From Nemertoderma westbladi (Eukaryota > Animalia > Xenacoelomorpha), in NCBI GenBank assembly GCA_032718475.1, contig JAUCBJ010007649.1:51577-115576 (forward strand): a DNA stretch of 64,000 nt, given 5' to 3'. The notes below the pieces were generated by a model that saw only the letters and a list, made by a program, of their open reading frames with translations, was not told the DNA's origin and made no database searches. This document shows positions 19,912 through 54,643 of this stretch, one piece after another. How positions within the stretch are numbered: position 1 is the stretch's first letter; each line of letters begins with the position of its first letter. Made by a program: the position numbers and the translations under genes.

Positions 19912-19920
19912 ACTACGCGA

Positions 19921-28527: not shown

Positions 28528-28670
28528 TGATGAATTATTTCACTATAAGGTAGCATTTGTAGTTTAACTTTAACGTAAAAACTTTTGAAAATCCGACGTA
28601 TTTTGATTAAGTTACAGTAATGTAATATGCCTATTTATATTTGTACACATAAAACCCTTAGGTACTCTCG

Positions 28671-28740: not shown

Positions 28741-28787
28741 AATTTGTATTTTGGGGCCATTTATTTTCGTTTAGGTGCTAATTGGTA

Positions 28788-31769: not shown

Positions 31770-34700
31770 ATGAGTGACACACCCCATTCGACGAGATACC
31801 CACCTACCGACTATGACTCGTGCGACCCGGACAGATCGACAGTAGACGAACCGAGAAGGAGAACCCGAGATTCCACCGATGTCACACCGCTTGCGTCGCC
31901 GGTACCCCGAACGGAAATACCGGAAGCCGCAACGCGTGGCGACGGCAGAATTGAAGATTTCCTTACCGTCCCGCAGACTAGATCGCGGGAACCGGACATG
32001 GTAAGTTCGACTGGAAGCCAGGAGAACGTTATTAGAAGTATAGGAGGACACATGGCCCAGATTACTCGGAACCTCGGAGAAGGTTTTCGCGTTTTACGCG
32101 AGTTAACCGCCCCGATGTCGAGATACGAGTTCTACACCTTACAGGTAAGGATAGAAAGTAGGGTACATGCCTCCGTAGATAAACTTAAAGGTTTGCACGA
32201 ACTTGCAGAGTTGCGTGGCGACAACTTTACTCAGGTAAAGATAGTGGATAAATTGGTAAGTGCGAGAGAAAGCCTTATCCAGTTTAAGTCGGTAATAAGC
32301 TTGGCTCAACAGGAGCAGTTCGACCAACTGCTAGGTGAGTCAGTTTCGGACGCGTTGTTACAACCCGAAGAGGAAGAAGAACTCTACTGCCTGGACGGAA
32401 GGTTGGAAACGCTGACCAATTTTCTTCGTAGATGCGGCGTACCGATCGACGAACCGGAAGTCGAACCGCGAGGGACGACGGAAGTTCTCACTACGGAAGG
32501 CTCGCGAGCCTACCAACATCCACCACTGGATAGATCGTTCGTTAGCGTACGGAGCGACGTTGGCAACGTTGGCGACGTTAGTAGAACAGCGTCTGGAATT
32601 ACTCGACAACAACAGGAGGTTGCACGCCGACAACAAGTCGCCGAGGAAGAAGCGCGACACCAGATGGCACAGATCGCCATCGAAGGAGAGAAACAACGTA
32701 GAGAAGACGAGGCAAGAATTGCACAACTCAAGGCGCAAGCTGAATTCGAAGCATCAGAAATGCGCAGACTGGAGGAGGACTTAGCGCGAGAAGCGGCCGC
32801 GGCGGCAGCAGCTGACGAGTTAGCACGGAAGAAAGCAGCATCCGACGCTCGTGCCAAGTTGGAGGCGCGGCAAATAAACGCTCGATTAGCTATACAGGAA
32901 GCGGAATTAGCGGCACAACAACAGGACGCAGATCGACGCGAAAGGGAGATGCAACTACAGTTCGAATTGAATCGTAGATCGCGCGAGACAGCGAACGCGC
33001 AAGCGGACCTCGAACTCGACGCGAGAGATAGATCTATGAGATCGCGGACTGGACACGACTTGTCTGCCCTGGATCGTATGGAAGCTCGATATCGCGGAAT
33101 ACAGAAGCGGATCGAGGAAGGAAGCGTGGGAGCGATAGATCGAGGAGAGGAGTTCGTCGAGGATTACTGTAAACGTTTTCCCCAAGTTATTCCTATGCTC
33201 AAACCCACGACTCCGATAAAACCGGTCTTCGTTACGAAACCTAAGGAAATAACGCCTGTGCGTTCGACGCAAGGCAACAGGTTTGTTGTGACGGAAATAC
33301 CGCAACCTAGGGCGACTTCATCGCCAATTTTAGCAGGTAACATAACTAGTCCACCTACAGTAAGTCGTAGTCTACTTGTAGGAAGAGAGGAACCTGCGTT
33401 TATGACCATTAAACAGGTGAGTAAACCATTACAAGTTAAACCTGTGACGTGCTGTGCAAATCCAGTTATTTACAGACCGACTACGAAACCCGACTATTTC
33501 ACTCGACCGTTGACACAATGTTCGACGCAACCTACGACTTCGTGGAAGGCTTGCGAGCCTACCGAACTACGAAGGAGGATGGATGTGGGTAGTACTCACG
33601 GGATCGGACAACGTATAGCGAGACCTACGACTTCGTGGAAGGCTTGCGAGCCTACCGAACAACGGAGAGCCGTAGATTCCGGACCACAACGGACGAGACC
33701 CAGGATAATACGCCGGACGCGAACCCGCCAACCACCTTATCCGGACGACAGCGATTCATCCAGTGACTCGGAGTCGACGGAACGGGAAATATTCCGTACT
33801 GGAGCGGCAGCGGCAGCGGATTACAAACAGGAGGAACGATCGACGAACCCATACATCGACAATCCACCTCGAGAAACACCCCAACAGAAACCCACGTTGC
33901 AACCAGCGGAAGCGATCAGCACCAACAGACTCGCCGAAATAATGCGACCTGTAGCGGACCGACTAGCTCAGATAGAAGAGCGACTCGAAGCGCAACCGTC
34001 GGATCGATCACGAACCAGCGTGGAGTTGGAACAACCTAGACAACATCGACCACCGAGGAGAGAACAGGAGACTAGACGGACTCCGACACATCGAGAGGAA
34101 GATCCCGTTAATAATTCCTACCGACGAACAACGCGCGGAAGGGAGCGACTGGACGACGCCACCGAACAGGGACGCGGACAGTTGGATTTAGTTAGCGAGA
34201 TTGCGAAATTCGCGGCTAGACACGGATTACCGGCACAGCAACCGCCGAAGTTCTCTGGCAACGCGAAACACTGGCGCACACTGGTAGACTACGTAGAGTC
34301 CCAGATCGCTAAGTGTGCTTTCACCTCGACGGAGAAGTTTAACTACTTGCTCCAAGTCCTGTCTGGTGAGCCGAAACGATTAGCGGAAACCTTTATTGGT
34401 GTTCCCGATGCCTTTGAGTTGGCGTACGACCGTTTGTATTCGATTTACGGCGGTAACGTCGCCATGGCTAAATCCATCATTGAAGACCTCTGCAGAGGAG
34501 GCAACATTTCGAGACCGATCGACCTTTTACGACTCGCGGACGAAATAAAGAACGCTATAGGGACTTTACGGTCCATTGGACAACTCGAGTACGCTAACGC
34601 ACCGACGGTTCTCATTCGAATAATCGGTCGACTTCACCATCGACTACGACGAGAATGGCGACGCATCGAGTACCAACGCGAAGAGGCCGGAGGGTTATTA

Positions 34701-37700
34701 AAACTCACCGATGTCTATCAACTTATTTCACGGGAGGCCGTGATCGAGACTCGATCGAACTATACCGATCACCATATCGCGGCGGAAGGGATAACTGTTT
34801 CTGCGCCGAATCGGACTAAACCTTTTCCGACGAACGCGAAGGCCGTTACTTACGCCACCCCTACTGAGACTTCTAAAGTTCTGACGCCTATCGGCACCAC
34901 GCAGCCACGACAACAGTTGCCGGCGGACTTTGTGGGATGCTCATACTGCGAGCGGAACGGCAGAAACCATAGCGGACATAAACTACGTGCATGTCGCGCT
35001 TTTAAAGAGTTAGGGATCGAGGAAAGGAGACTCCAAATCCGATCTCTAGATTCCTGTTGGAGATGTATGAAGCCAGGACACGTCCGGAAGGATTGCCCGA
35101 GCGATGATACATGTTCTCTGTGTGGACGTAACCATGACGCGTTGCTTCACACAACCAGTCATACTCCGACCAGACGCTTTCGACGAGAGCATCCCGATAA
35201 AGCGGCTAGATGCGACGCGCTTTATAAGGAGCGTGCGCCGCGCGAGATCCGTACCTTTTATACCGACTGTATGGATCAGTCAGGATCATCGGACGAGGAC
35301 GAGGAGGAAGACGACACTTTCTACGTGCATGCAGGTGAGGAACAGCCATCGATAACGCTCCTCACACAGAACCAATTGAAAGGGTTTAGCGTGATTCCTA
35401 TAAAGATTACCGGAACCCGAGGGAGCAAGCGTATATACGCCATCTTAGACTCTGCGTCATCGCATAGCTATGTCGACGAACAAGTAGCCGACGTAGTTAC
35501 GGACTTGAGTCAAGGTAAGACTGCTCAGTATACTGTAAGCAGCATGCATGGTAAGAGAGCGATTCCTGTGACAAGAGTAAAACTAACTTTAGACACTCTT
35601 CTTTCCAAAGCGGAACACAGCAAGGAGGAGCGCTCATTACTTCCGGTAAGAAATTTGACCTTTGCAGCTACGAAGGACTTTAGTAACTTGCTCGGCCCTG
35701 TGCCAGAGCAATCACCGGAAGATCGTAAGTATTTCCGACACCTTGGAATACCGGAATGTCCTGTCAATTATCGTTCCATTGCGATGTTAATTGGGACAGA
35801 CCAGTTTAACTTACATCAGGTATGGGAGACACGCCCATCTGTTATTACAGCGGGCAACCCCTACGCATGTAGAACTCCCATAGGTTGGTATACTAGAGCA
35901 CCAATACGTTCACTAGAGGTAAGTGACCAGGAGGACGACGTTTTGAGTACGTGTAGTTTATTGACTAACACGATAGATAATTCTCCTTCACACTCCCGTG
36001 GTCCAATTGTACGGACGGCACTACGACAGACTTGCGTCACTAACGCAGACGCCACCGATACTGACGTAACCGATCTGGACACGACCATACGGACCTCTGA
36101 CTTACAACTACTTGCAGTAGACCAGGTTGTATTGACTACTGAAGACCTGAGGGTTGTTGCTGTGGATGACTCGATGAACGAGGATTTTGGAAGGCTTGCG
36201 AGCCTACCGAAAAATCCGAAGGTCATTGACCCCACCCACCAGGCTTCGACACCGGTCGTTGATCTTGGAAGGCTTGCGAGCCTACCGATAGATCAAGAAG
36301 TTGTCAAACCGCCGCACGACAATTCGACGCCGACTAGTGACACCGGAAGGCTTGCGAGCCTACCAGACACATTGACACTAGCCACCGCAGCGGACGAAGA
36401 CGTGGACGAGGACCATGGCGCAGTGCAAGCAGCGCTTGACCGACTGCTGACTGAACGGACCATACAATGGTTGGAACAGGACTCAGCAGAACCCGGTAGT
36501 TACGAGACCGCTATGTCAGAACAGGAAAAACGGTCATTAAATATTATGAGAGATACCATTCGCCAGACCGCGAATGGCCACTATGAGGTTGGTATGTTGT
36601 GGCGCGATGGACAACCTAAGCTCGTTAACAATTACCCGCTTGCTTTGAGGCGACTCAAATCAATAAGGCAGCGATTGTTGCGAGACGAGACGGCCCATAT
36701 GCAATACAATGCACAACTTCAGACGTATCTCCAAAAGGGATACGCCATTAGGATGTTAAATCCTGAGGTAACTACAGACCAGACATATTACCTGCCACAT
36801 CATTTTGTTCGACACCCGGACAAACCTGGCAAGGTGCGTGTAGTCAACGACTGCGCTGCGCTTTACCAAGGGATGTCTATGAATAGCGAACTGATGGACG
36901 GGCCGAATATGAATAATTACCTCATGGGAGTCCTAATGCGTTTTAGACAACGCAAAGTGGCTTTCACCTGTGACGTAGAGGCCATGTTTCACCAGGTTAA
37001 GGCTTTGGAGCGGGACAGGGACAGTTTGAGGTTTCTTTGGTATCCGGACGGAAACTTACAACTTCCGCCAGAAACTTACCAAATGCAGGTAAGAGTATTC
37101 GGAGCCAGGGACAGCCCCAACTGCACCATGTACGCCTTGAAGCAGACAGCATTAGACAGACGAGACCAATTTGACCCAGAAGTAGTTCGGACCGTGGAAC
37201 GAGATTTCTACGTGGATGACGGCCTCAAGAGTTGTGACACCTTGGAGCGCGCTACAACCGTAGCACACCAACTCCAGGATTGTCTCGCTGAGGGCGGATT
37301 TCACCTGACGAAGTTCGCTTCCAACGAACCCGAACTGGTGAACTCATTTGACCCGACGGATCGTAGCGGAGGTGACTTGGACTTAGACCTAGAACCTCTG
37401 CCGACGACCAAAGTATTAGGACTTAGTTGGGACCCTAACACCGACAATTTTAGGGTACGTGTAAGGTCCAACGACCAGACTAGACCTCTCACTAAGAGGA
37501 CTTGCTTATCGACCATGAGTCGATTGTATGACCCATTGTGTTTCATTAGTCCAGTGATCCTGCATGCTAGGATCATACTCCGCAGCATTTGGCAAGCCGG
37601 ACTGGAATGGGACGATCCCATCCCAGAAAAGTTAGCTGAGCGATGGAGGGACTGGGAAGCCCAACTGACGTTCCTACAAGACTATACCATACCAAGGGTA

Positions 37701-40628
37701 TACTTTCCTTTGCAAACCACCTTTCCTGCTGATTTAGAGCTTCACAGCTTTAGTGACGCTAGCAAGGATGGATTGGGGGTTACCTTATACCTTAGACGAC
37801 AAGTGACATCGGACAGCTACGATGTATCTCTCGTTACTTCAAGGGCTAGAACAATGCCATTGAAGTATATGACTGTACCTCGTGGGGAGCTGCAAGCCGG
37901 GACGATATCCACCGATATTGTCAGTCTAGTTCAACGCGAGCTGGAGGCTAACTTGAAGGTCACATATTGGACGGATGCGACGTTGGTACTTTGGTACATA
38001 AACAACGAAACATTCGAGTTCAAGACTTTCGTAGCCAACAGACGGGCTGAAATACTAGACCGGTCGCTCAAACAAGATTGGCGTCACTGTCCAGGGAAGC
38101 TGAACCCAGCTGACATCGCGTCACGGGGGATGCAACCACTTGACTTTTGTAAACCGGACAATAAATCCTTTTGGTTTAGAGGACCCGATTTCCTACAGCG
38201 ACCATCAGACGAATGGCCACCGTTATTCGACGCGACAACCAACACCATACCAGAGGGTGCCGAGATAAAACTCGACAAGGTTGTCAAGTCTAAAGCGAAA
38301 GCCAACGCCAAGGTCAAGAGGAAAAAAGGACGGACGAAATCTGATGACCTGGATGCCAGACCTGACATTACGCCAGACGTCTCGCCAGACACTCGACCAG
38401 ACGCTTGTACGAATCCTTCGCCGGATGTTCCGCGGGAGATTTCACCAGACGTTTCGCCGGATTGTTCACCAGATTACTCGCCAGACTATTCACCAGAAGA
38501 GACACCAGATTGTTCTCCGGATTGTTCGCCAGATTGTTTGATGGAACTCTCGACAGAATGTCTACCGGACGTCTCACCAGACTTTTCACCAGACATCTCG
38601 ACCGACTGTCCACCAGACTTTGAACCAGACTTTCTGACAGAAGTTACGCTAGACAGACTTTGGGACCGACGACAGGACATTTCGCCGGATGTTCCGCGCT
38701 ATGTCTCACCAGACGTCTCACCAGACTGTTCACCAGACGCTTCACCAGACTGTCTACTAGACACTCCATTAGAAGACCCATTGGAGCGGATCTTTAGAGA
38801 CGTACCGAATTTGACTTCTTTGGACGACAGAGATGTGGCCACAGGGATTACACTCCGCTCGAAGAAGGTACTTGACTTACCTACAGGTAAAGTGGTGACT
38901 AAGGTTAGGAAGCTTACAGGCTCACAGGAACACACTGACACTGTAGAGTTGAAACCATTACTGCCAGTCGACACATTAGGTGCGGACGGCAAAGGTAAGA
39001 CCGTAGAGATTGACGTACTTGGGGACTCAGACAAACCTACCGGAAGGCCCGTGGGCCTACCAAGTCCAGACAAGTATCCACACTACGACTACACCTTACC
39101 CGATGACGTCACTAACACTTACGTTGACAGGATAGTGAACCTAACTAGATCGTGGACTGACGCGTGCCGCAAGTTAGCATGGCTCAAACGATTGAGACAA
39201 TATGCCAGAGGCAAACGCGACTTTCCTAGAAGACTTACCTTAAAGGAAATTGAACACTGTGAAGTTGATATCATTAGACATTATCAATTGCGATATTTCG
39301 CACGAGAGTTCACAGCGATCAAACAAGGTAAACAGATTAAGTCTTCACCGATTTTGAGTTGGAGTCCGATTATTTACCGGGGCTTACTTTGTCACAAGTC
39401 CAGACTCCAAAACATCGACTTTGCACTTGACTTTAGGTATCCTATCATCATACCGCAACACCATGAGTTACAGCGCGCTATGATACTGGACGCACATGTA
39501 CAACTCAAACACGTAGGTAGACACCACTGTCTATCACACTTACGCTCGAGGTTTGTACTGATTAGACCTAGTAAGGCACTGAGTTCAGTAACACGGAACT
39601 GTATTATTTGTAAGAAGGTGCACGCGAGGATAGGACACCAAGAAATGAGTGAACTACCATTAGCTAGATTACAGGCGTTTAGACCCCCTTTCACTGAGAC
39701 AGGGATAGACTGTTTTGGACCCATAATCGCGAAACGCGGAAGGGTACAGGTAAAACGTTGGGGATTGATCTTCACTTGCATGGCCAGCAGAGCTGTCCAT
39801 ATAGAGCGAGTGACAGACTTGTCCACCAATGCCTTTATCCTAGCCTTACGGCGATTTATCGCTAGACGTGGATTGGTCAAATCCATATACTGCGACCAAG
39901 GGACAAACTTTGTGGGTGCACGGAACGAGATAACCAGAGCTTTGAGAAAATTGGACCAAAACCAGATTTCCGAGGAACTACGTCCTCACCGTATTGTTTG
40001 GTTTTTCAATACTCCAGACAGTCCGTGGAGAGGCGGCGTTTGGGAAAGGCTGATTGGCTCAATTAAGACAGCTATGGCTAAAGTCGTACCGACGCAACAC
40101 ATCTTGACAGACGATCAACTGACGACGTTACTAATAGAAATCGAAGCAATCTTAAATACCAGACCGATCGCTTTGATCCCAGACAATAACGACGTACAGT
40201 TTGCCTTGACACCAGCGCACCTGCTTATGCAGGCGCCGACGACATTGTTGCCCATTTCGGTACCCGTTGATAGTGACGGATACGGCAACAAGGCTTGGAA
40301 AATCACTCAATTACTTGCAAATAAATTCTGGGAAATATGGCAGAAATATTATTTGCCCTCTATTTCGACCAGAACCTCTTGGTATCTAAATACCCGGTGT
40401 TTAAGACGTGGTGACCATGTCTTATTGGCTGAAGCCAATCTGAGAAGACGGTTTTGGCTGACTGGAGTCATTTTGACCACGCACCCTACATCTGGTGTAG
40501 TGAGGACAGTTACTGTACGGACTATCGACGGACGTACCGTAGATAGGCCTGTACAACGTCTCGTACTCCTTGAGGAGACTAGAAACGAGACGGGAGACTA
40601 CAAATCTCCACCCAATATTAGTAAATAG
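31770..40628 (+). CDS. gag-pol: E2 BEL/Pao Gag-Pol polyprotein, 2952 aa, uninterrupted
   Basis: CWRCMKPGHVRKDC; ILDSAS; YVDD; FSDAS, PRGEL, WTDA, NPADIASRG; GIDCFGP, CDQGTNF, GGVWERL. Confidence 0.97.
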   Translation: MSDTPHSTRYPPTDYDSCDPDRSTVDEPRRRTRDSTDVTPLASPVPRTEIPEAATRGDGRIEDFLTVPQTRSREPDMVSSTGSQENVIRSIGGHMAQITRNLGEGFRVLRELTAPMSRYEFYTLQVRIESRVHASVDKLKGLHELAELRGDNFTQVKIVDKLVSARESLIQFKSVISLAQQEQFDQLLGESVSDALLQPEEEEELYCLDGRLETLTNFLRRCGVPIDEPEVEPRGTTEVLTTEGSRAYQHPPLDRSFVSVRSDVGNVGDVSRTASGITRQQQEVARRQQVAEEEARHQMAQIAIEGEKQRREDEARIAQLKAQAEFEASEMRRLEEDLAREAAAAAAADELARKKAASDARAKLEARQINARLAIQEAELAAQQQDADRREREMQLQFELNRRSRETANAQADLELDARDRSMRSRTGHDLSALDRMEARYRGIQKRIEEGSVGAIDRGEEFVEDYCKRFPQVIPMLKPTTPIKPVFVTKPKEITPVRSTQGNRFVVTEIPQPRATSSPILAGNITSPPTVSRSLLVGREEPAFMTIKQVSKPLQVKPVTCCANPVIYRPTTKPDYFTRPLTQCSTQPTTSWKACEPTELRRRMDVGSTHGIGQRIARPTTSWKACEPTEQRRAVDSGPQRTRPRIIRRTRTRQPPYPDDSDSSSDSESTEREIFRTGAAAAADYKQEERSTNPYIDNPPRETPQQKPTLQPAEAISTNRLAEIMRPVADRLAQIEERLEAQPSDRSRTSVELEQPRQHRPPRREQETRRTPTHREEDPVNNSYRRTTRGRERLDDATEQGRGQLDLVSEIAKFAARHGLPAQQPPKFSGNAKHWRTLVDYVESQIAKCAFTSTEKFNYLLQVLSGEPKRLAETFIGVPDAFELAYDRLYSIYGGNVAMAKSIIEDLCRGGNISRPIDLLRLADEIKNAIGTLRSIGQLEYANAPTVLIRIIGRLHHRLRREWRRIEYQREEAGGLLKLTDVYQLISREAVIETRSNYTDHHIAAEGITVSAPNRTKPFPTNAKAVTYATPTETSKVLTPIGTTQPRQQLPADFVGCSYCERNGRNHSGHKLRACRAFKELGIEERRLQIRSLDSCWRCMKPGHVRKDCPSDDTCSLCGRNHDALLHTTSHTPTRRFRREHPDKAARCDALYKERAPREIRTFYTDCMDQSGSSDEDEEEDDTFYVHAGEEQPSITLLTQNQLKGFSVIPIKITGTRGSKRIYAILDSASSHSYVDEQVADVVTDLSQGKTAQYTVSSMHGKRAIPVTRVKLTLDTLLSKAEHSKEERSLLPVRNLTFAATKDFSNLLGPVPEQSPEDRKYFRHLGIPECPVNYRSIAMLIGTDQFNLHQVWETRPSVITAGNPYACRTPIGWYTRAPIRSLEVSDQEDDVLSTCSLLTNTIDNSPSHSRGPIVRTALRQTCVTNADATDTDVTDLDTTIRTSDLQLLAVDQVVLTTEDLRVVAVDDSMNEDFGRLASLPKNPKVIDPTHQASTPVVDLGRLASLPIDQEVVKPPHDNSTPTSDTGRLASLPDTLTLATAADEDVDEDHGAVQAALDRLLTERTIQWLEQDSAEPGSYETAMSEQEKRSLNIMRDTIRQTANGHYEVGMLWRDGQPKLVNNYPLALRRLKSIRQRLLRDETAHMQYNAQLQTYLQKGYAIRMLNPEVTTDQTYYLPHHFVRHPDKPGKVRVVNDCAALYQGMSMNSELMDGPNMNNYLMGVLMRFRQRKVAFTCDVEAMFHQVKALERDRDSLRFLWYPDGNLQLPPETYQMQVRVFGARDSPNCTMYALKQTALDRRDQFDPEVVRTVERDFYVDDGLKSCDTLERATTVAHQLQDCLAEGGFHLTKFASNEPELVNSFDPTDRSGGDLDLDLEPLPTTKVLGLSWDPNTDNFRVRVRSNDQTRPLTKRTCLSTMSRLYDPLCFISPVILHARIILRSIWQAGLEWDDPIPEKLAERWRDWEAQLTFLQDYTIPRVYFPLQTTFPADLELHSFSDASKDGLGVTLYLRRQVTSDSYDVSLVTSRARTMPLKYMTVPRGELQAGTISTDIVSLVQRELEANLKVTYWTDATLVLWYINNETFEFKTFVANRRAEILDRSLKQDWRHCPGKLNPADIASRGMQPLDFCKPDNKSFWFRGPDFLQRPSDEWPPLFDATTNTIPEGAEIKLDKVVKSKAKANAKVKRKKGRTKSDDLDARPDITPDVSPDTRPDACTNPSPDVPREISPDVSPDCSPDYSPDYSPEETPDCSPDCSPDCLMELSTECLPDVSPDFSPDISTDCPPDFEPDFLTEVTLDRLWDRRQDISPDVPRYVSPDVSPDCSPDASPDCLLDTPLEDPLERIFRDVPNLTSLDDRDVATGITLRSKKVLDLPTGKVVTKVRKLTGSQEHTDTVELKPLLPVDTLGADGKGKTVEIDVLGDSDKPTGRPVGLPSPDKYPHYDYTLPDDVTNTYVDRIVNLTRSWTDACRKLAWLKRLRQYARGKRDFPRRLTLKEIEHCEVDIIRHYQLRYFAREFTAIKQGKQIKSSPILSWSPIIYRGLLCHKSRLQNIDFALDFRYPIIIPQHHELQRAMILDAHVQLKHVGRHHCLSHLRSRFVLIRPSKALSSVTRNCIICKKVHARIGHQEMSELPLARLQAFRPPFTETGIDCFGPIIAKRGRVQVKRWGLIFTCMASRAVHIERVTDLSTNAFILALRRFIARRGLVKSIYCDQGTNFVGARNEITRALRKLDQNQISEELRPHRIVWFFNTPDSPWRGGVWERLIGSIKTAMAKVVPTQHILTDDQLTTLLIEIEAILNTRPIALIPDNNDVQFALTPAHLLMQAPTTLLPISVPVDSDGYGNKAWKITQLLANKFWEIWQKYYLPSISTRTSWYLNTRCLRRGDHVLLAEANLRRRFWLTGVILTTHPTSGVVRTVTVRTIDGRTVDRPVQRLVLLEETRNETGDYKSPPNISK

Positions 40629-41359
40629 ATGTGGGACCTTTGTTGGCCGCCACATAGACCTACTGTATTTTAGTTATTTGTATTTGTATTACTGTACGTG
40701 CATTTGTAATCCTCTTCACTGTAGATAGAGACAGCGGTGGAATTCCATTGTCTTTATACGTGAACATGGAGGGTAGTACCCTTATGTATCACATAGGAGC
40801 GGGATTGTGTGTACAGTAGGAATGGAATTCCACTTGGAACCCACAAGTGAGACATTTTTCAAAAATTATTAGACAAATCCATTTATTTGGATTTAAATTT
40901 AAGAAAAACGATTCTCCAGTGAAAGCAAATTCTAGAATACAGCTAGATAAAATTAAAATTGGGGAGGACAAGAGCGGATGGAAGGCTTGCGAGCCTACCG
41001 ATAAATTTTTTTGGAAAAGAAAATCGGTCTTGTTCTACGTAGTCGTGTCTACTATTATTTTGACCAATTAATTCTCGACTGCACTATTTTTCTTGGGAAA
41101 CGTAGTTTGGGAAATTAAAAGGTGAGTATTTTAGACTCGCGGCTAGTTTACCCGGAATTCGTTTTTTATCGGCACAATTTTGGATTAGGAGCCAGTGCGA
41201 AATTACGCGAACCCGAAATCATTAGGCAAAATGGGTTGGGGTTTAGAGCAGAGTTGAGCCAAAAGCCAACAAACTCTGGAGTCACCTCACATCTAACCTC
41301 TATTTTGTGCTTCATCTAGTAGAAACGTAACGATATGTAACCGCATATATTCGTATACA

Positions 41360-41492
41360 ATGGCGGAGAAGATGTATAAAGAGTTACGTCAAGGGTTTAC
41401 GCAAGAACAGGAGCACCAGGCGCCATTCAATCGTTATGGAGCTAAAAACTTTAGTGTGTTTGGAGTGGAGAGTATGGCTAGGAGTACAGCCA
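41360..41492 (+). pseudogene. E2 accessory ORF segment 1 (N-terminus, cut by the E3 insertion)
   Basis: Removing E3 plus one TSD joins ...ARSTA-K-LAKSKADPN in frame with the 48853 ORF. Confidence 0.75.
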
Positions 41493-42021
41493 TGTTAGCT
41501 TATCCAATTCCGCTAACACAAACCCATAGAGTGAGCCATAAAGCAATATTGGGAGCCTATTGTCAGCCCAGTAAACGGGGACAATAGGCCCCAAAGGAGA
41601 CACACACAATAAGGGTCAGGGGTTACTCCCCTGACAAGAGAGAGAACAGCAAGGGCGAAGGGAAGCACTTCAGAGGGGGGCAAAGGGTGCCAACAGGGGT
41701 ATCAACCAATCAGAGGGGGGAAAGGCATCGATTGAGTAGCAATAAGGCCACCGTGCAATATAACCAGTTACCAGTAATCATACCGGTCAGTTATTCAGTT
41801 TACTCAGTCAGATCAGTAGGGTGGAACGGGGACTTCTGTCACCGTCCGCTACCGCCATCTATATATTACCTATTGTGTCATACTATATTATATCAACTGT
41901 CAGACTATTATACCTTTATACATATTACCCAACATCAGAACTCTTTTACCTTTCACACACGGCGGGGACGCGTGGATAGAAAACCCAAACGGATAAACCG
42001 GGATCCGTAGATCCCGTCACA
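41493..42021 (+). repeat. E3 5' LTR
   Basis: TGTTAGC...CCCGTCACA; direct repeat of 48275-48803. Confidence 0.97.
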
Positions 42022-42030
42022 GTGACAGAA
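42022..42030 (+). promoter_or_regulatory. E3 non-tRNA primer-binding site candidate (GTGACAGAA)
   Basis: Exact reverse complement of LTR 41834-41842 (TTCTGTCAC). Confidence 0.6.
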
Positions 42031-42150
42031 CTAGATCCGCCCAGCTGCCCTGACAGAGATAGAATCCTAGCAGCTGCCCTAACAGTCTGACAGTGATAGA
42101 ACTAGATCTAACCAACTGACAGACTGTGGCTGCCAGCTACCAAAGGCGAG

Positions 42151-44071: not shown

Positions 44072-45646
44072 GTGAAGTTAGAAGTGGCGGGTGGGGGGGG
44101 GCTACGGAGCACCCCACCGCGAGAGATTAGTAGAGAGAGAGGGGGGGCAGAGAGTGTCCCACAGCCGTCAGCGGATAATGCGCGGGCCGAATCAGGTAAA
44201 CCGCAACACCCGGCGACGGAGAGTAATAGGGGGATTGCGAGTATCCCCAGCGGCGTGCGATCGAGCAGAGAGAGGCAGGTTGACGTCGCGAGAGGGCAGG
44301 CGAAGCGTCGAGCCCGACCAGAAGAGAGAAGAAGAACAGTGGAGTTTAACCGGGAGGTCGACGAGAGATCTCACGAGCCGGAATACTACACAGAAAAGAG
44401 AAGAAGAGAAGATAGTAGAAGAAGTGTCGCCACGAACGATAGCAGTGCGAGGACGGATAACGGACCGTCGATAGTAGAGATGGAGTCAGGGAGCCAGTGG
44501 GGTCGAACTTCGGGAGATTGCCGTCGCCCCGGAGAAACGCACCGCACGCCAAGAGAGGGGTACAGGACGTACCAATACAGAGTCGAGAACAGGAGAGGGG
44601 ATCGAAGAGAAGCTTCCCGACGGGATATAGCTGCCGATCGAGAGTGCAGTAGTCGCGGGGAGATTCGAGATTCGCGAAGAATAAACTTCGGTTCGGAAGG
44701 GCACATGCAGACTGCAGGACATACTGTAGGCCTTACTGCACATACTATTATAGGCCATGCTGGGAGAGATAGAGTAGGCGATGGGGTAGCGCGAACGACG
44801 GGATTAAACCCGGAAGTCGCGGAGTACATACCGGTAGGTAGGCGAGAGGTAGGTAGGCCTATATCGGTACAGCAGCATGACTATAATACACAGGGACATA
44901 ACATATATCCAGGGGAGGGGGGAGTTATTGGAGATAGACGTATGGGCCCCAATGTATTAACATCAACCCCAGTACCAAACATACCGGCTGGGGGGGGACA
45001 GGGTGACATTCCCCCATCACAATATCGACAATATACCCCGATAGGAGCAAGAACATCGAACTCCCTGGACGAGAGCAGGTCGTGCGGACAGTCACCACCA
45101 CACGCGGCCATACAGGGGACTGCTAGTCCACAGTTAGCTGGTAGCAGGGCCACACCGTGGCAGGGACAGAAAGAAAATAACACCAAAAATAAAAACAATC
45201 CCAATATACCCAGTAGGCCGAGTCTAGACAACCAAAACATTAAATCGGTACATATAAACCTAAGCGCGATACGTGAAGGACTATACAGGAAACGCTATAA
45301 TCCAGGATTCCAATGTCAATTACATCGGGACGGAACCCATAAGACCAGGAGTTGCAAGTACTGGCAAGCGTTGCCCAAACGAGATCGTGTAGCCTACACA
45401 GACGCAAACGGACTATGTCATCGATGTGTGGTAAAAGGACACAGATCCGGAGAGTGTTGGAAAGGGAGAGGATATGAAAGGACTAAACCAGGGGCAGAGA
45501 AGCCCATTAGCAAACATAAGGGAGTCGGGAAAGTAGAGAGGAGGCGTGTTGCATACACACGCAGGACGGACACAGTGCGAGGGGGCATTGCACGGGCAGA
45601 CACCGCGTATACCGAGGGACGAGCGGGGGTCGTCGAGGGCTCTTAA
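44072..45646 (+). CDS. E3 Gag-like C-terminal ORF with BEL-type Zn knuckles (probably a frameshifted remnant)
   Basis: CQLHRDGTHKTRSC...R...GLCHRCVVKGHRSGEC has the same layout as the E1/E2 Gag knuckles. Confidence 0.65.
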   Translation: MKLEVAGGGGLRSTPPREISRERGGAESVPQPSADNARAESGKPQHPATESNRGIASIPSGVRSSRERQVDVARGQAKRRARPEERRRTVEFNREVDERSHEPEYYTEKRRREDSRRSVATNDSSARTDNGPSIVEMESGSQWGRTSGDCRRPGETHRTPREGYRTYQYRVENRRGDRREASRRDIAADRECSSRGEIRDSRRINFGSEGHMQTAGHTVGLTAHTIIGHAGRDRVGDGVARTTGLNPEVAEYIPVGRREVGRPISVQQHDYNTQGHNIYPGEGGVIGDRRMGPNVLTSTPVPNIPAGGGQGDIPPSQYRQYTPIGARTSNSLDESRSCGQSPPHAAIQGTASPQLAGSRATPWQGQKENNTKNKNNPNIPSRPSLDNQNIKSVHINLSAIREGLYRKRYNPGFQCQLHRDGTHKTRSCKYWQALPKRDRVAYTDANGLCHRCVVKGHRSGECWKGRGYERTKPGAEKPISKHKGVGKVERRRVAYTRRTDTVRGGIARADTAYTEGRAGVVEGS

Positions 45647-45879
45647 TGCCAGCGCACATACGAAGGGGGAGGCCAGCAAAGGTGGCACCGAAGAGAGTGT
45701 GGCGAAGAGTTAGAGGACGTATAGGAGGGCAGCAGGAGAGTGCCTACTGGAAGAAGGGGCACGTGAGAGTTTTTAGTCGTCCAAAGTTTTGGACTGAGGG
45801 GGGTGGGAATGAGGGCGAGACGCCCTTCCCACGCACAAAATATAAAATAATTATTTAATTAAATAAAAATAATTAAATA

Positions 45880-47900
45880 ATAGAGTAGGTAGAAGTTAGG
45901 TAGTTAGGAGTTAGTTAGTGAGGGTACGTGTAGTACCGTTAGTAGAAGAGTTAGTAGGAGGGTACGTGTAGTACCGTTAGTAGAAGAGTTAATAGAAGGG
46001 TACGTAAGTACCGCTAGGTAGTTAGAGTTAGAGGGTACGTAAGTACCGCTAGGTAGTTAGAGTTAGAGGGTACGTAAGTACCGCTAGTTAGAGTAAGAGT
46101 TAGAGGGTACGTAAGTACCGCTAGGTAGTTAGAGTTAGAGGGTACGTAAGTACCGCTAGTTAGAGTAGGAGCTAAGGGGTACGTAAGTACCGATTAGAGA
46201 GTAAGAGTTAGAGGGTACGCAGTACCGTTAGAGAGTAGGAGCTAAGGGGTACGTAGTACCATTAGTTAGTAAGAGTCAGCTAGTTAGAGAGTTAGAGGGT
46301 ACGTAGTACCAATAGTTAGTTAGAGTTAGTAGGTACGTAGTACCTAGTTAGAGTTAGAGTTAGTAGGTACGTGGTACCTAGTTAGAGTTAGAGTTAGAGG
46401 GTACGTAGTACCGATAGTTAGAGAGTTAGAGGGTACTAGTACCTAGTTAGTTAGAGTTAGAGGGTACGTAGTACCGATAGTTAGAGAGTTAGTAGGTACG
46501 TAGTACCTAGTTAGAGTTAGAGTCAGTAGGTACGTGGTACCTAGTTAGAGTTAGAGTTAGAGGGTACGTAGTACCGTTAGTTAGTGGAGTTAGAGTAAGA
46601 GTTAGAGGGTACGCAGTACCGTTAGAGAGTAGGAGTTAAGGGGTACGTAGTACCGTTAGAGAGTTAGTAAGAGTAAGAGGGTACGTAGTACCGCTAGCTA
46701 GTAGAGAGAGCTAGAGTAGTAAGAGGGTACGTAGTACCGCTAGTTAGGGGTGTTAGTAGTAGCAGTAGAGGATTGTGGGCACCGTAAGCGCCACGTAGTT
46801 AGAGTTAGTAGGGAATGCGCTGAACTTAGTGGGGCACGGGCGTGATGATGTGTTTGATGTAAGAGCAGGGTATGTTAATTAGAGTTAGTGGGAGTTAGAG
46901 GTTAGTAAGAGGGTACGTAGTACCGGTTGTGGTTGTGGGCACCGTTAGCGCCACGTAGATAGAGGTAGAGTTAGTAAGAGGGTACGTAGTACCGGTTGTG
47001 GTTGTGGGCACCGTTAGCGCCACGTAGAGAGTTAGTAGAGTTAGTAGAGTCAGTAGTAGTTCACATAATTAACGTACCCACTCTGCCGGCACTCAGAGCG
47101 TCACGTGTAGGCGATGAGACGTAAAGGGGGTGTAGAGGAGTACAGACGGGCACATAGGGTGCCAGGTAGTAAGTTAGAGAGGTAGTAGTGTAGTAGAGAG
47201 GGTACATAGGGTACCAGTGAGTAGAAGAGTAGAGACGGGCACGTAGGGTGCCAGGTAGTAGAGTTAGAGAGTTAGAGATAGAGTAGAATAGTAGAGACGG
47301 GCACATAGGGTGCCAGGTAGTAGAGTTAGAGAGTTAGAGATAGAGTAGAGTAGTAGAGACGGGCACATAGGGTGCCAGGTAGTAGAGTAGGGTGTTAGAG
47401 GTAGTAGAGAGGGTACATAGGGTACCAGTGAGTAGAAGAGTAGAGACGGGCACGTAGGGTGCCAGGTAGTAGAGTTAGAGAGTTAGAGATAGAGTAGTGT
47501 AGTAGAGAGGGCACATAGGGTGCCAGGTAGTAGAGTAGTAGCAGAGAGGGCACATAGGGTGCCAGATAGTAGAGTGGTTGTGGGCACCGCAAGCGCCACG
47601 TAGTTAGAAGAATGGAATAGAGTTAGTAGAGCTAGTTAGTAGAGTTAGCAGAGCTAGTGGAGTAGAGTTAGTAGAGCTAGTTAGCAGAGTTGGTAGACTC
47701 AGAGGAGTCAAGTAGAGTTAGTAGAAGTAGAGAGCTAGTAGGAGTTAGTTAGACTTAGTAGAGAGTTAGAGTTAGTAGAAAGTTAGAGGCTCTCAGTTAG
47801 AGCTAGAAGTAGTAAGAGTTAGTAGTTAGCAGAGTTAGTTAGATAGTTAGAGTTAGTAAGCAGTAGGTAGATAGTATGATAGCACAGGGGTAGCATTAGA
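45880..47900. repeat. Purine-rich complex tandem repeats (TTAGAG runs, GGTACGTAGTACC, GGGCACATAGGGTGCC) inside E3
   Basis: Directly visible. Confidence 0.9.
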
Positions 47901-48274
47901 GATTAAAGCCTTAGGGAGTGACAGAGAGTGGAGAGGTAATAGTGCGGAGTGCGAAGAGAGCGTGGGCGCAATTCAAGTGTGGGGGAGGAGAAGTGAGAGG
48001 AAGAGTGTGGGACGAGGAGGTCCGGGAGTATGCGAGAGTTGGAGTAGAGTGGTGAGAGTGTTGGGGAAACAAAAATTGTGTGAGAGAAGCGCACGATCGG
48101 CCCGACACGAGACGCCAGAGGGTAGTGACATCATACCCATAGGGAGCGGCCTGGAAAGCCGACTCCGAAAAAATAGACCCACCCCACACCCGATAATAGA
48201 TCGGGATCCAGCGGAATTGTAGCGCACTTGAGTTGGATGCTATCTTCTCACCGGGAAGATAGCATGGGGGGGAG

Positions 48275-48803
48275 TGTTAGCTTATCCAATTCCGCTAACA
48301 CAAACCCATAGAGTGAGCCATAAAGCAATATTGGGAGCCTATTGTCAGCCCAGTAAACGGGGACAATAGGCCCCAAAGGAGACACACACAATAAGGGTCA
48401 GGGGTTACTCCCCTGACAAGAGAGAGAACAGCAAGGGCGAAGGGAAGCACTTCAGAGGGGGGCAAAGGGTGCCAACAGGGGTATCAACCAATCAGAGGGG
48501 GGAAAGGCATCGATTGAGTAGCAATAAGGCCACCGTGCAATATAACCAGTTACCAGTAATCATACCGGTCAGTTATTCAGTTTACTCAGTCAGATCAGTA
48601 GGGTGGAACGGGGACTTCTGTCACCGTCCGCTACCGCCATCTATATATTACCTATTGTGTCATACTATATTATATCAACTGTCAGACTATTATACCTTTA
48701 TACATATTACCCAACATCAGAACTCTTTTACCTTTCACACACGGCGGGGACGCGTGGATAGAAAACCCAAACGGATAAACCGGGATCCGTAGATCCCGTC
48801 ACA
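48275..48803 (+). repeat. E3 3' LTR
   Basis: Preceded by PPT GGGGGGGAG and followed by TSD AGCCA. Confidence 0.97.
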
Positions 48804-48808
48804 AGCCA

Positions 48809-50734
48809 AGCTCGCTAAATCCAAGGCGGACCCGAATGTTACGCGACAGCGGTTGGACGCATACAACAAAAGAACGGAGGAATTACGCGCGGAATACAAT
48901 GCGTTATATCCCTACGATGCGTTATGCGACGCTAGCGACATTTGCGAGGATCCAGACACCGAAATACGCCGATTGTATCATACGCTGCAATATTTGACGG
49001 TAAACGAACCTTTACCTGCAGCTAGAGACGAATTTGAAGGAATGCATCTTTATAGACGCGCTCGAGGAGCGGATCCAGAGACCAAGGACGCGTTTTCCGT
49101 ATACAAACTGTTTTATAAATGCGGAGCGTGTATGCGCGAGCAAGACAACGCGATTCCTATGCGGTTGAACTCGGAGAACCCCGAGCCGATATTAGCGCGA
49201 TGTTCACACCACCAAAGTCTACGTTATCAAGAAGGCGGATACCCTTTAACAAATCCATATCATTCATTTAAGATGAGTGGACCGAACGCGGGTGAAATTG
49301 TTATTTACGAACCAAAATTAGTCGAACCAGACGTCTACAGCATGGTAGTGGACGAGTCTAATAAGTCGACACAAGAGAAACGGGAAGCTTTGAGCCTCTA
49401 CAGGGCGTACAAGGCGTACGAGAAAGGCGAGATCGAGGAGTTCGGCGGAAGGCTCGCGAGCCTACCATTCTATTGGATATCCCACGATCAAACCGAACCC
49501 AAGGAGATGACACCCGAGCTCTTCGATAGTATCACCTTTGCTCAGCGTTTGTCGCAGAGACTACAGATACCTCACGTTGAGATGACGCGAGAACCTCAGC
49601 CCCATTCTACTGGAGCAATAGTACCGGTTGCGAGACCAACTAGTTTTCCTATTAGTATACCGACCCGGAAGGAGACAACTTACGAGATCCCTATAGTTGA
49701 ACACCCGGAGATCATCTCGAACCTGGATTTCCTCCCATCGGTCACCTTCGGTGATGTGTTAGAATCAACCGAGTTGCGTAAAGTAATAGTTCAAAAAATC
49801 GTACGCAACGTGCCTCCACATATCACGGACTTTAAGGAAGTGGATCGCGCGGGGACGGATATCGCACCTTGTATCTTGCGAGGATATCTGACGAAAACGA
49901 TTCGATTATGGATCGGAGTTGGGACGTTTGAGACCGACACCGATATCGCGACCAATTGGACTGGTAAACCTATTAGTTTCGATGATGAAAAGTCGATCGG
50001 GAGAATTTGGAACCCTACCGACGATTTACTCGACGATTGGGACGTGACTAGCCGATCTCTGAAAGAGAATGGATATATGTTTTACGATAATGAAGGAGGA
50101 AGCCATCAGCAAAGCCTCACTTCAAAGACGATACAGATTAGAGCACCAGATGGCGTGTTACATGTCTTCAGCCGACAGAGGAGTGATAGGAAGATGCCTA
50201 TGCCGGAAGGAACGACGCAAAGACACGCGATGATAGGGCGGATGGTTAAATCCATGGACCTAGCTTGTAGCATAGAAGCTAGGATGTTGCCAAAGGCCGT
50301 GCGAGACGTTGTGTTGGATAAGAGCATCGTCAAGATCGGATCCGGTGTACGGGATGACCTCATTAGCGACTTTGCAGGGATGCCCACGGAAGAGGACCGA
50401 TTGCCTACGCCATACGTGGATACTAGACCATTGTTGCTTTGGGCTATTGAGCAAGGATACTTTAGAGAGTATAACACGCTAAAAACTGGGACGGGTTATA
50501 TCTCATATCTGATGTTCAGTTGGGATTACAAGGAGAGTAAGAGGAACAAATACACGGACGTATACGGAGAGGGAGATACCCCCGGCGTAAACGAGTTCGA
50601 GTCACAGTTGAAGTGGCGAGGTTGCGTGTATTGGGCCATTACTTCACCTCCGCGGATAATCTTGCAATACTATTTAGCGATAGAATCTTCGGTTAACGTT
50701 TGTTTCATCGCGGACGTAGTATCCAGAACCTTAA
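48809..50734 (+). pseudogene. E2 accessory ORF segment 2 (Cys/His domain and 3'-5' exonuclease-like domain)
   Basis: FYDNEG; LPKAVRDVVLDKSIVKIGSGVRDDL; YVDT; YYLAIES; homologous to the E1 accessory ORFs. Confidence 0.85.
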
Positions 50735-52286
50735 CCCTATTAGTACCGGGCTATAAAATGTTGTACAAATACCGGGAGGGGGTCATATTGACCCCCCCCT
50801 CTAAAATCTACAAATATTTACGAAAACGTCTGATTTTTTGTTTGTACGTAGGTATCACTTGTCTGGATCCGACCGAAAAAAAAAATTTTCGAAAAAATGT
50901 ACTGGGGTGGTTATATTGCAGCACCAAAATTACAAGTAGTGCACAATTTTCACCAAATTTGAAAGTTACATTTTCGGCTAATTATTTTTCAATACAGGTT
51001 TTCTGGGGTGTAAAATACATTGGAAAATATTAAAAAATGATATGATTACTATAAATGGCTGTTTAGTCCTCTCTGCGTAGGAAAAAAATGAAAAAAACAA
51101 GTAACCAGCACTTTTCAGTTAGAACACAAAATTTTTAATTCACTTATACGATGCTATAAATTCACATTTTCAGGTTTTCGAGGGCGCTGATTCTAATGGA
51201 ATACATTTCTAATATGCTAGATCATTGCTACTTGTATTTTTCGGCGTAATTTGGCAAATTTTGGTGCTAGCACCAAATTTCGTACCCATCACCAAAAAGT
51301 ACAAGTTTGCAATGTCCAGTGCAGTTTTTATTGATTCCATCGGATTCAGGACCCTCATAAACCCGTATAACGCAAGAAACAAGGTGATACTATCTACTTA
51401 TCAATTTGCATATTTTCCAAAATTTGGTGCTGGCACAACAATTTTCACCCACCGGCGAAAAATACAAGTTTGACAACTCTTATGAAATTTTTACTGATTC
51501 CATTGAATTCAGAACCATCACAAACCTGTATAACGCAAGAAACAAGGTGACACAATCAATTGATATATTTGATGGTTTTCAAAATTTGGTGCTAGCACCA
51601 CATTTTGCACCCACATCCGAAAAATACAAGTTTGAGATGTCTAGTTCGATAATTATATTTTCCATTGAATTCAGAACAGCCATAAACCTCTAAAACGCAA
51701 GAAATAAATTCTCACAAGCAATTTTATCTATTGAATGGATTTTCAAAATTTCGTGCTAGCACCAAAATTTGCACACAGCACCGAAAAATACAAGTTTGAT
51801 ACGCTTGGTGCAACTCGTATATATTTCTTCGAATCCAGAAACCCAAAAAACCCCAATTGCGTAAAAAACAAGTTTCAAACGATCAATTTACAAAATTGAC
51901 TTATTTCAAAATTTGGTGCTGGCACCAAAATTTGGCACCCACCGAAAAAAACAAGTTTAAAATTTCTAAATCAATTTATATGAATTCCATCAAATTTCTA
52001 ACACCAAAATACCCGTGTAAATAAAAAATAGAGATGTTACAATTCATATTTAATGAAATGTAATTTTCAAAAAACGTCTCAAAAAAAGTGCCAAAAGTAG
52101 GGTTAAAAAATGGCGCTATAACTCGAAAAGTACCCAATATTTTTGAAAACGGTTTTCACTACTAGGAAGACAATAGATTTTTAGGAAAAGTCATAAAATT
52201 TCAGATTCCCAACTGCGTTTGTTTCAGAATTATAATAAAAAAACCACGGGAGGGGTCATATTGACCCCCCCCCGGGTTTAATAGGG
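50735..52286. mobile_element. Non-autonomous piggyBac-type DNA transposon (1552 bp)
   Basis: TTAA TSD (50731-50734 and 52287-52290); CCCTATTA...TAATAGGG termini; AT-rich, no transposase; excision restores the host ORF. Confidence 0.92.
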
Positions 52287-52290
52287 TTAA

Positions 52291-53987
52291 AGCGACACCC
52301 GTTATGTCTTGGCGAAGGACATACCTTTTACGATGGAGGAAGGACGCATACTGATGTATTCCGACGATTTCTCCAACCCTTTTATAACACCGATGCGCAC
52401 TGCGAAGTTTTCACGCGAGCGGGACTTAGCGTTTTCAGGGACGTCTATCTCACTCACGCGGGAAGTCTAGTCGACAGACCGTCGATGTTAACGTTAGTAC
52501 CCTATGACGGGGAACGCCACGCGGAATTCGAACGCCCGGAAGGATCCTGGAAGGCTCGCGAGCCTACCGCCCATCATGACGATGTGGATCCGACCGAGTT
52601 GGCGCTAATAGACGAACCGTTACGGCAACTCATAGAAATAGAAGAGAACCTTCCAAGGAAGACGCGAACTGAGATACGCGAGTTAGAGAAAAGCGATGCC
52701 ATGGTTTGTGTACAACCTACGGAGACGAACATACCGACTGACCCGGATGATGAGAATTATCACGTGGACGGTAGCGCTCGCCCCATCGGAGACCTCATCT
52801 ATGAGCGAGTTTGGTATCCTGCCAACACTATTTGTGGCAGATGTGGAGCAACTGGCCATCACGCAAAGAAGTGCGGAGCGAAGCACATATCTCTACCGGA
52901 TTTAGTATGCAACTGGTGCGGGGATCAACGTTCGCACACTTTCTACACTTGCTGGCGTTTCGTGGCGCAGTGTACTTATTGTAATATTAAGGGCCATAGG
53001 GCATCTGAATGTCAACTTAGAGACGTCCCCTATGAGCACATGTCAGTTAAAATCGTTCGACAATTATTCGACCATTGGGAGGATCTAGCAGACGAGCATG
53101 TATCGACGCAGCGACGCCGCTTCCCTATGAGAGCACATTTGGGATTTTGGGCCGTAAACCCTCTCATAATGTCAAAGGAAGGATATGTATCGGCTATGCC
53201 TCAGTACGATGAATTGTTGGAGGTATTGGATATATTGCCGTTGGACAGTGGATTCAAGGTTGTGCGGGATTATTTCTTACAAGTGCACCCCGACAACAAG
53301 AATACTTGGAACTTTCAAACTGTGGTGAACAAGATTACCGCCGGAGAATTCGATAAACTGCGAGTTGAACAGCGGAATCGAGGAGCCTGGCATTCGATAG
53401 CTTGGGCATACCGGAGCGCATTTTATCACAAACGCGTAACCTCGTGCATTCTGGACGAGACCGACGTTTTGCGTGAGACTGGCTTCAAGGCCACGCCGTT
53501 AGCGGAGAAGACGCGTCACCCACAGGATGATCAGCAATTTCGTATACTCAAAGCCCAGAAGGCCGGACAAGAGATCAAGAAGATAGTGAATGTCGCCGAG
53601 AGGACGACATCGAAGTCGCAAATCCGGATGACTCGGGGCACGGTTTCCCTTGCTAGAGAACCACGTGGAGGGACAGGATACGCTTTGACTGAACCCATTA
53701 GGATTCAAACGACGTCAGAGAGCGAGGTGTCAACGGACGGAACAGTCCTACCCTTTCGACTTCCTCCTAGCGTTGTAGAAACTCGATCCGATATTAAGTC
53801 GACAGTTGGAATCGGACGAGGATTTAGAGGATTGAGCGCACGACGGATGTGCGAAACTCCCGTCGTCCCCTTTCCTAGCGTTTTGGAACCACCGACAACT
53901 CGACGCCGAAGTCCGAGCCCTGTTCGACCTCGACCACCCCCCAATCGCACTAGAGGACGTGGACGAGCCCGCTCAGCGAAGGAATAG
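52291..53987 (+). pseudogene. E2 accessory ORF segment 3 (three CCHC knuckles, basic tail); includes the 52485 ORF
   Basis: Rejoined SRTLKRHPLCLG...FRRFLQPF matches E1 SRTIRAHPLKLG...FRRFLTPF; knuckles CGRCGATGHHAKKC, CNWCGDQRSHTFYTC, CTYCNIKGHRASEC. Confidence 0.85.
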
Positions 53988-54643
53988 GAAGCGAGTGGAA
54001 GGAAGGCTTGCGAGCCTACCGATTTGGATATTATATTTGGATATTATATTTGGATGTTATATTTGGATTTTATTTGGATATTTTATTTGGATATTTATAT
54101 TGGACGTTATGTTTGAATGTTGGGTTTGGAGGAGCGAGATATGGAAAGGAAGGCTTGCGAGCCTACCGTTAGCAATTGGTGCTCAGGAGAAGATATCCAG
54201 ACCAGCAGGACGAACTTTTTAGCTCGTCAGGAGGACTTTTAAGACTCATTTGAAAGTTATTAGCGCATTATGTTTATATTAAATTTGGACTGATTTAATT
54301 TGGTGAAGGTTTATTATGTATATTTACAATATATAAAGATTTATCGAAAGAGTTTGATTTATTTGTTTGATTTGTTTGAATTATTTGTTTTGATTTGTTT
54401 ATTTGCTTATCTTGATAACCGAAAGCCTTTTTTTGTATTTTAGGCACTAAAGTTAATTCGTAAATTTGTATTTGTATGTACGATCGATTGTATTTACGCC
54501 GTATCTGCAATATTAAGTATGCAATGATTAGATAGTGATTATATTTTATATTTTAGGCCCTACCAGTAAATTTAGAAATAGTTTGTAGATATTTTATATT
54601 TTGATTGGTGAAAACAGTCTTACTTACTGTTTTCATGGAGCGG

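Follow-up and report, generated by a model that had tools for sequence, protein, structure and literature searches.

A near-invariant 20-nt motif, predicted to fold as an RNA hairpin, recurs in one orientation along a BEL/Pao retrotransposon of Nemertoderma westbladi

We analyzed a 64,000-nt stretch of contig JAUCBJ010007649.1 of Nemertoderma westbladi (the window, in whose coordinates all positions are given) and found a 20-nt near-palindrome recurring in a single orientation along a long terminal repeat (LTR) retrotransposon, here called E2. Judged by its protein domains, E2 is a BEL/Pao element: it encodes a single Gag-Pol with DUF1759, Peptidase_A17 and DUF5641 (Pfam E-values of 1.5e-39, 4.6e-9 and 1.8e-17), the integrase lies behind the reverse transcriptase (RT), and the closest homologues of its Gag-Pol are BEL/Pao polyproteins, all named homologues being from animals. 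From the coordinates we infer a genome of about 17–18 kb. No target-site duplication was found at E2 (flanks AGGCA and AGCAC), and the copy may be recombinant or rearranged. An accessory gene follows Gag-Pol, broken upstream by a nested LTR element and internally by a DNA-transposon insert. The features needed here are the following.

4452..22725, + strand: E1, BEL/Pao element related to E2 and used as internal control; it shares the accessory gene but lacks the motif
28528..30807, + strand: 5' LTR of E2, 2280 nt, TG...CA, sharing 97% identity with the 3' LTR; motif absent
31767..40628, + strand: Gag-Pol of E2, a single frame of 2953 codons with DUF1759, zf-CCHC, Peptidase_A17, Integrase_H2C2 and DUF5641
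34938..35096, + strand: two Gag knuckles by Cys/His pattern (amino acids 1058-1076 and 1097-1110), candidate readers of the motif
41493..48803, + strand: nested LTR element, 7.3 kb, with 529-nt LTRs that are identical, AGCCA as 5-bp duplication and no frames other than gag-like ones; motif absent
48804..53987, + strand: main part of the E2 accessory gene, homologous to that of E1
50038..50730, + strand: exonuclease-like (DEDDy/RNase D-like) region of the accessory protein, with weak statistical support
about 50735..52286, no strand assigned: non-autonomous DNA-transposon insert, bordered by TTAA at either side and with inverted ends CCC...GGG, which we take to be piggyBac-like; no motif copy
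52833..53012, + strand: three CCHC knuckles of the accessory protein, a second candidate reader
54644..56922, + strand: 3' LTR of E2, TG...CA, repeat of the 5' LTR; no motif copy

Allowing up to three mismatches, a scan of the window found the motif at 12 sites, all on the plus strand and all within the internal region of E2. The scan returned 23 matches in total, the 11 on the minus strand having the same coordinates as plus-strand copies, as a near-palindrome matches itself; 100 dinucleotide shuffles of the window gave none. The original prediction had listed 11 of these copies, each of which we recovered in place and in the sense orientation; it had missed the one at 32495, which lies outside the interval that it considered. 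The copies form about eight clusters.

32495..32514, + strand: copy 1, loop CGCG; linker in the N-terminal part of gag, phase 2 (EGSRAY)
33544..33563, + strand: copy 2, loop TGCG; phase 1 (WKACEPT), within a gag linker, forming a 93-nt duplication together with copy 3
33637..33656, + strand: copy 3, loop TGCG; phase 1, in the 93-nt duplication with copy 2
36189..36208, + strand: copy 4, loop TGCG; protease-RT linker, phase 0 (GRLASLP), first of a trio spaced by 78 nt
36267..36286, + strand: copy 5, loop TGCG; phase 0, second of the trio
36345..36364, + strand: copy 6, loop TGCG; phase 0, third of the trio
39042..39061, + strand: copy 7, the variant, with loop CGTG and, through a change in each arm, C-G in place of T-A as closing pair; phase 0 (GRPVGLP), in the linker from RNase H to integrase
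40980..40999, + strand: copy 8, loop TGCG; non-coding, between pol and the accessory gene
49447..49466, + strand: copy 9, loop CGCG; accessory gene, phase 0
52549..52568, + strand: copy 10, loop CGCG; accessory gene, phase 1 (WKAREPT), in the linker that joins the exonuclease-like part to the knuckles
54001..54020, + strand: copy 11, loop TGCG; 13 nt past the accessory stop codon
54148..54167, + strand: copy 12, loop TGCG; 3' non-coding

The copies are nearly invariant. In a Hamming scan to distance 6, 11 of them lay on the plus strand at distance 0 from GGAAGGCTYGCGAGCCTACC and the variant at 39042 at distance 3; that variant set aside, no two copies differ by more than one letter. The loop is TGCG in 8 of the 12 copies, CGCG in 3 and CGTG at 39042 alone. 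Decayed copies at distance 4–5 were found on neither strand of the window, and the sole further match was at distance 6, on the minus strand at position 16006 within E1. Neither E2 LTR, nor E1, nor the nested element, nor the DNA-transposon insert contains a copy, and the absence from LTRs and E1 noted earlier held up in both scans. The 5' leader (30808-31769) contains none either, and the first copy lies 725 nt into gag. The bases at motif positions –1 and +1 covary: they read T...G in six copies and C...A in four, never C...G or T...A (Fisher p = 0.005 counted by copies and 0.03 by clusters, two A...G copies being excluded). This flank pattern may reflect two source lineages or selection against a longer stem.

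The motif is held at the nucleotide level and is sited where the protein tolerates it. The nine coding copies use all three codon phases (phase 0 five times, phase 1 three times and phase 2 once, at 32495) and three copies are non-coding, which extends the earlier observation of differing reading frames and non-coding copies and rejects selection on the encoded peptides. In five pairwise comparisons of neighbouring copies, 78–147 nt apart, the core was identical at 20/20 positions each time, while the flanks had fallen to 29–55% identity (27/58, 17/58 and 23/58 for the 78-nt units, 40/73 for the 93-nt unit, and 26/60 for the 3' pair at 54001/54148, which is possibly not a duplication); the difference is significant in every pair (Fisher p = 5e-5 to 8e-9). 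With the core kept in three phases and against such flanks, selection on nucleotides, as had been proposed, is supported. Silent changes would be available at 19 of the 20 positions in at least one of the nine coding copies, and the variation observed is limited to motif positions 8, 9, 11 and 13. At all seven Gag-Pol copies only 0–1 of 17 long homologues align; for comparison, 46% of Gag-Pol residues are aligned in at least 9 of the 17. With the two later inserts discounted from the coordinates, the eight clusters lie 1.0–2.9 kb apart over 15 kb and are spaced more evenly than random (coefficient of variation 0.41, p = 0.03; largest gap, p = 0.06). Their uniform orientation has a two-sided p of 0.008.

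The related element provides a comparison within the window. E1 is 41% identical to E2 in RT/RNase H, and we found no equivalent array in it among dyads, k-mers or hairpins; the system is therefore not required by the clade. Two side observations concern E1 itself. A single in-frame TGA (19909-19911) in its accessory gene splits two long frames that are continuous in E2. The heptamer CTCGAGC occurs seven times in sense (8174, 11042, 13844, 14240, 15855, 19964 and 21090) and once in antisense against 0.9 expected; it shares CGAGC with the E2 motif but no common hairpin, and is not significant after testing of all 7-mers.

Sequencing data point to a large and varied family. Contigs aligning to 10.7 kb of sequence numbered 15,422 in run X1 and 6,906 in run X2, one of which is possibly the window's own source. 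The contigs range in identity class from 99% down to less than 90%, and the family has many diverged copies. Unit number at 33544/33637 varies among them: a 10%-diverged contig of run X5 has 48 letters there against 135 in the window, and run X1 shows a joint 33494-33609; some members have one unit fewer. None of the 40 variable places listed, of 944, falls within a motif copy; as only about 0.6 would be expected to, this is uninformative. Beyond the family, the motif peptides in any phase had no exact match in 66 homologous proteins (at most 56% identity), where ten sites, each single, matched with one mismatch. The motif was absent from viral contigs, which also contained no loci related to E1 or E2. 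In metagenome contigs 37 loci carried a single match apiece, and neither tblastn nor blastn showed any of them to resemble E1 or E2; prokaryote genomes gave two single matches. On these sequence comparisons, the motif is specific to the family and its copy number is fluid. We had also considered an origin like that of bacterial repetitive extragenic palindromes; this is not indicated, the metagenome and prokaryote matches being single and read as chance. In a distant BEL/Pao homologue (P0004), residues 130-800 contain the dispersed repeated peptides RPASEV, FQSEAE and QRSTE, which might reflect a repeated DNA motif.

As RNA, each copy is predicted to form the hairpin GG-A-AGGCU-loop-AGCCU-A-CC, with a YGYG tetraloop, a 5-bp stem, an A.A mismatch and a 2-bp base, the fold originally described. 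For all 12 copies, the minimum-energy fold of the surrounding 100 nt contains the hairpin (inner-stem pair probability 0.54–1.0); at –7.6 kcal/mol (z –2.0 to –2.3) its stability is modest. The single arm change, that noted before at 39042, is two-sided, U-A to C-G, and preserves pairing. The A.A mismatch is invariant, never resolved into a perfect palindrome and never reversed, and loop positions G2 and G4 are unchanged in all 12 copies. Both loop changes are C/T changes opposite a G, such that the loop keeps its self-complementarity through G.U on the sense strand only, and copies with UGCG pair fully among themselves only as sense RNA. Between the two LTRs, however, C/T differences outnumber A/G differences by 25 to 9, which weakens a loop argument of only two events. 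The two-sided arm change, the invariant A.A and loop G2/G4, the loop changes (the last of these weakly) and the single orientation nevertheless favour RNA, and on these sequence features the motif is probably an RNA signal. An enhancer-like site is also disfavoured, as copies lie in coding sequence and are missing from the 2.28-kb LTR.

Known signals offered no match. An Rfam covariance-model search at E-values up to 5 gave two matches, both off the motif and far under the gathering score, and the longest pairing between the motif and the LTR or leader was 8 nt. Resemblances to the histone stem-loop and to a p53 site were considered and dropped, the first having no Rfam match and the second a half-site without the YYY end. 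Decay of methyl-CpG is an unlikely origin of the loop variants, with an observed/expected CpG ratio of 0.94–1.18 in the elements.

E2 encodes two sets of CCHC knuckles that could read such a hairpin. The accessory protein has the same layout as its best homologue, P0067 (E = 1e-7), whose knuckles match the nucleocapsid (NC) protein of human immunodeficiency virus (HIV; E = 1e-4). The N-terminal part of P0067, and of P0067 only, matches PF01612 under the curated threshold (E = 0.04–0.2), and a three-sequence accessory profile found only EXD2 (E = 0.39) and RNase D (E = 2.2) in PDB. At E up to 0.001 the accessory piece of E2 had no homologue and that of E1 three, and two AlphaFold models, with predicted local distance difference test (pLDDT) scores of 30 and 34, were unusable. 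The label of DEDDy exonuclease is thus likely, not established. That Gag or accessory knuckles read the motif is plausible by likeness to the UGCG loop of Rous sarcoma virus (RSV).

We tentatively favour the view that the copies tag the RNA with a repeated hairpin, to which CCHC knuckles encoded by the element itself, most likely the Gag ones, would bind so as to gather and compact an unusually long RNA. One knuckle would take a loop G, since G2 and G4 never vary, and a second contact would read the unpaired adenosines. Tags would be added wherever the protein tolerates seven extra residues and would spread by local duplication and by copying during reverse transcription, coming to lie about 1–3 kb apart. 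In a more specific and rather doubtful form of this idea, the array would be a private RNA barcode, a hairpin every 1–3 kb or so that the element's own knuckle protein reads folded and that also zips two genomes together at many points, giving a family-specific self-recognition unlike the single 5' signal of retroviruses.

The closest models come from viral packaging. In RSV, the N-terminal NC knuckle binds G residues of the UGCG tetraloop of SL-C and the second knuckle binds adenosines (PMC5035970, PMC7599994). The minimal RSV packaging signal shares with E2 this loop (in 8 of the 12 E2 copies, a G-exposing loop of the NC-knuckle type by sequence likeness only), a G-C-rich stem, nearby unpaired adenosines and CCHC knuckles encoded in the same genome. 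It is, however, one copy in a three-way junction of the 5' leader, while the 12 copies of E2 stand alone, are found across coding and 3' regions and leave the leader free. The E2 array also resembles the dispersed signals by which MS2, picornaviruses and hepatitis B virus are packaged (PMC6281560), together with the nsp15 signal of mouse hepatitis virus (MHV; PMC12911879), where AA/GA bulges recur in a protein loop that is dispensable: small stem-loops, many in number, repeat one recognition motif along the genome and occupy coding positions that the protein tolerates. The 12 E2 copies, in 8 clusters and one orientation, are likewise predicted shared-motif stem-loops on the genomic strand. In the former viruses the sites have a short motif and variable stems, and the MHV signal is one 95-nt structure, whereas in E2, an LTR retrotransposon, the whole 20 nt are near-invariant. 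The array would work like dispersed packaging signals but differs from Psi and dimer-initiation sites in position and from the targets of VANC, discussed below, in being largely coding. It stands out by the near-invariance of all 20 letters, known from one copy of one family.

Several observations weigh against the tag model. The antisense hairpin is just as stable (–7.6 kcal/mol on both strands), and folding alone therefore does not indicate the strand; a single orientation is also preserved by copying and is no proof of strand-specific function. The compensatory change is one event in one copy, and the non-varying stems equally fit a DNA site read by sequence or copy-to-copy pairing. The linker placement, counted as four clusters, is weak (p = 0.085). 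In E1, knuckles of Gag and the shared accessory gene occur with no array. In RSV, the UGCG loop was important to NC binding, but in one assay Gag selectivity did not depend on it, and packaging was unaffected when 2 nt of the loop were changed (PMC5035970). No copy lies where Psi would, in the 5' leader or at the start of gag, and the four or five downstream copies (49447–54148, perhaps with 40980) would also be present on a subgenomic accessory mRNA. Of the original proposal of packaging, export or protein-binding signals, possibly for these knuckles, selection on nucleotides is supported and an RNA hairpin favoured, while the leader and the downstream copies speak against a classical packaging signal.

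The invariant stems could also mean that RNA meets RNA. We consider it unlikely that the hairpins serve as contact points that open and pair with any other copy as a 20-bp duplex, joining two genomes or looping one, although such pairing would account for the near-absence of stem covariation. The 20-mer is a palindrome but for a single mismatch position, and all three loop variants (UGCG, CGCG and CGUG) are self-complementary on the sense strand with G.U allowed, as are 36 of 256 possible loops. Predicted homoduplexes are stronger in sense than in antisense for UGCG (–30.7 vs. –22.9 kcal/mol) and for the variant (–32.4 vs. –28.9) and equal for CGCG. Ty1 SL1 (PAL1/PAL2) passes from hairpin to intermolecular duplex, and the Ty1 and retroviral dimer-initiation palindromes share with E2 a hairpin capable of this (PMC6844567); those, however, are short, number one to three and sit close to the 5' end, where E2 has no site, whereas in E2 a 20-mer occurs 12 times over about 13 kb. 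Moreover, homoduplex formation is open to any hairpin, and the loop argument consists of two C/T changes that may reflect the background bias seen in the LTRs (in the internal region, run X1 counts 212 A/G and 161 C/T). Pairing alone does not explain the invariant A.A, and in-register dimers would leave each site free to covary.

The span of the array allows a role in RNA fate instead of packaging, in which the exonuclease-like, triple-knuckle accessory protein or a host factor would bind the copies and thereby clear every E2 transcript for export, transport or protection. Copies extend over the gag-pol and accessory parts, with two directly behind the accessory stop codon, and the knuckles of P0067 are HIV NC-like, beside a region weakly matching 3'-5' exonucleases. 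Rotifer LTR elements carry DEDDy open reading frames (ORFs), and inactive DEDD proteins retain RNA binding (PMC5408684); the bdelloid Juno and Vesta elements, like E2, have an extra ORF (ORF3) with a DEDDy-like region behind pol, but they are not BEL/Pao, and the examined text of that paper mentions neither CCHC knuckles nor a hairpin array. We find this role improbable: the same accessory gene is present in E1 without an array, the exonuclease assignment is below curated thresholds and its models have the low pLDDT scores given above, and the motif matches no Rfam family.

Dyad symmetry, a variable spacer and invariant arms are the usual form of DNA sites for dimeric proteins. The motif could accordingly be a double-stranded DNA site, with half-sites of 8 bp on either side of a 4-bp spacer, for a dimer that keeps the integrated element open in the manner of VANC. 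The targets of VANC in the VANDAL transposons of Arabidopsis are family-specific, multiplied within their own transposon partly in tandem, shift between close families and accompany an encoded accessory protein (PMC5735166), much as in E2 with its 78- and 93-nt duplications and the lack of the motif in E1. VANDAL is, however, a DNA transposon whose motifs are 8–9 nt, non-palindromic and non-coding and counter DNA methylation, whereas 9 of the 12 E2 copies are coding and none is in the 2.28-kb LTR. The half-sites always differ alike (A left, T right in half-site terms) and are never mixed, and the arms have changed just once, at two positions that together restore pairing. The CpG ratio of 1.18 in gag-pol shows no trace of methylation to escape, and the accessory knuckles resemble RNA-binding NC; the chance of a DNA site appears slim. 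Pairing, RNA fate and a DNA site are not mutually exclusive. Lack of function is very improbable: a stable palindrome moved by jumps of reverse transcriptase and too young for decay would fit the clear local duplications and the varying number at 33544/33637, but it is largely refuted by duplicated units with 20/20 cores in flanks of 29–55% identity, and we found neither partly decayed copies nor target duplications beside the copies.

Other features of the carrier and its surroundings were recorded. The left end of E2 adjoins a 24-nt satellite and the right end a rearranged relative of the nested element (56923-58800) with a protease frame at 57043-57870. Nearly half of the 87 LTR differences fall within one 62-nt stretch (29056-29118 and its 3' LTR counterpart) behind a TATAAA at 29027, and at 28665-28742 the LTR contains what we take to be a tRNA-like stretch with A-box- and B-box-like words, called by neither ARAGORN nor Rfam. 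A TGG-type tRNA primer site follows the 5' LTR in neither E1 nor E2; the bases there complement the element's own LTR over 10 nt in E2 (30808-30817/29535-29544) and 12 nt in E1 (5663-5674/4906-4917), as in self-priming elements. In the RNase H/integrase interval a 12-nt tandem repeat (38369-38773) encodes a (D/C/Y/V)SPD run. The nested element has 34 small hairpins in a purine-rich tandem region (44559-47563), GGTAC-loop-GTACC in 27 and GGCAC-loop-GTGCC in 7, a two-sided stem change; 55 hairpins compare with 8.5 in shuffles.

RNA selection and dimerisation have been worked out for few LTR retrotransposons. In the full-text literature covered, which lacks most subscription journals, no cis-acting RNA signal or repeated hairpin of this kind was described for BEL/Pao. 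With a nearly invariant repeated 20-nt motif and two candidate readers encoded alongside it, E2 makes the question directly testable. If the motif is a true tag, it would mean that the price a retrotransposon can pay for cis signals is peptide linkers, inserted in whichever frame, and that signals of this kind are replaced from one related family to the next.

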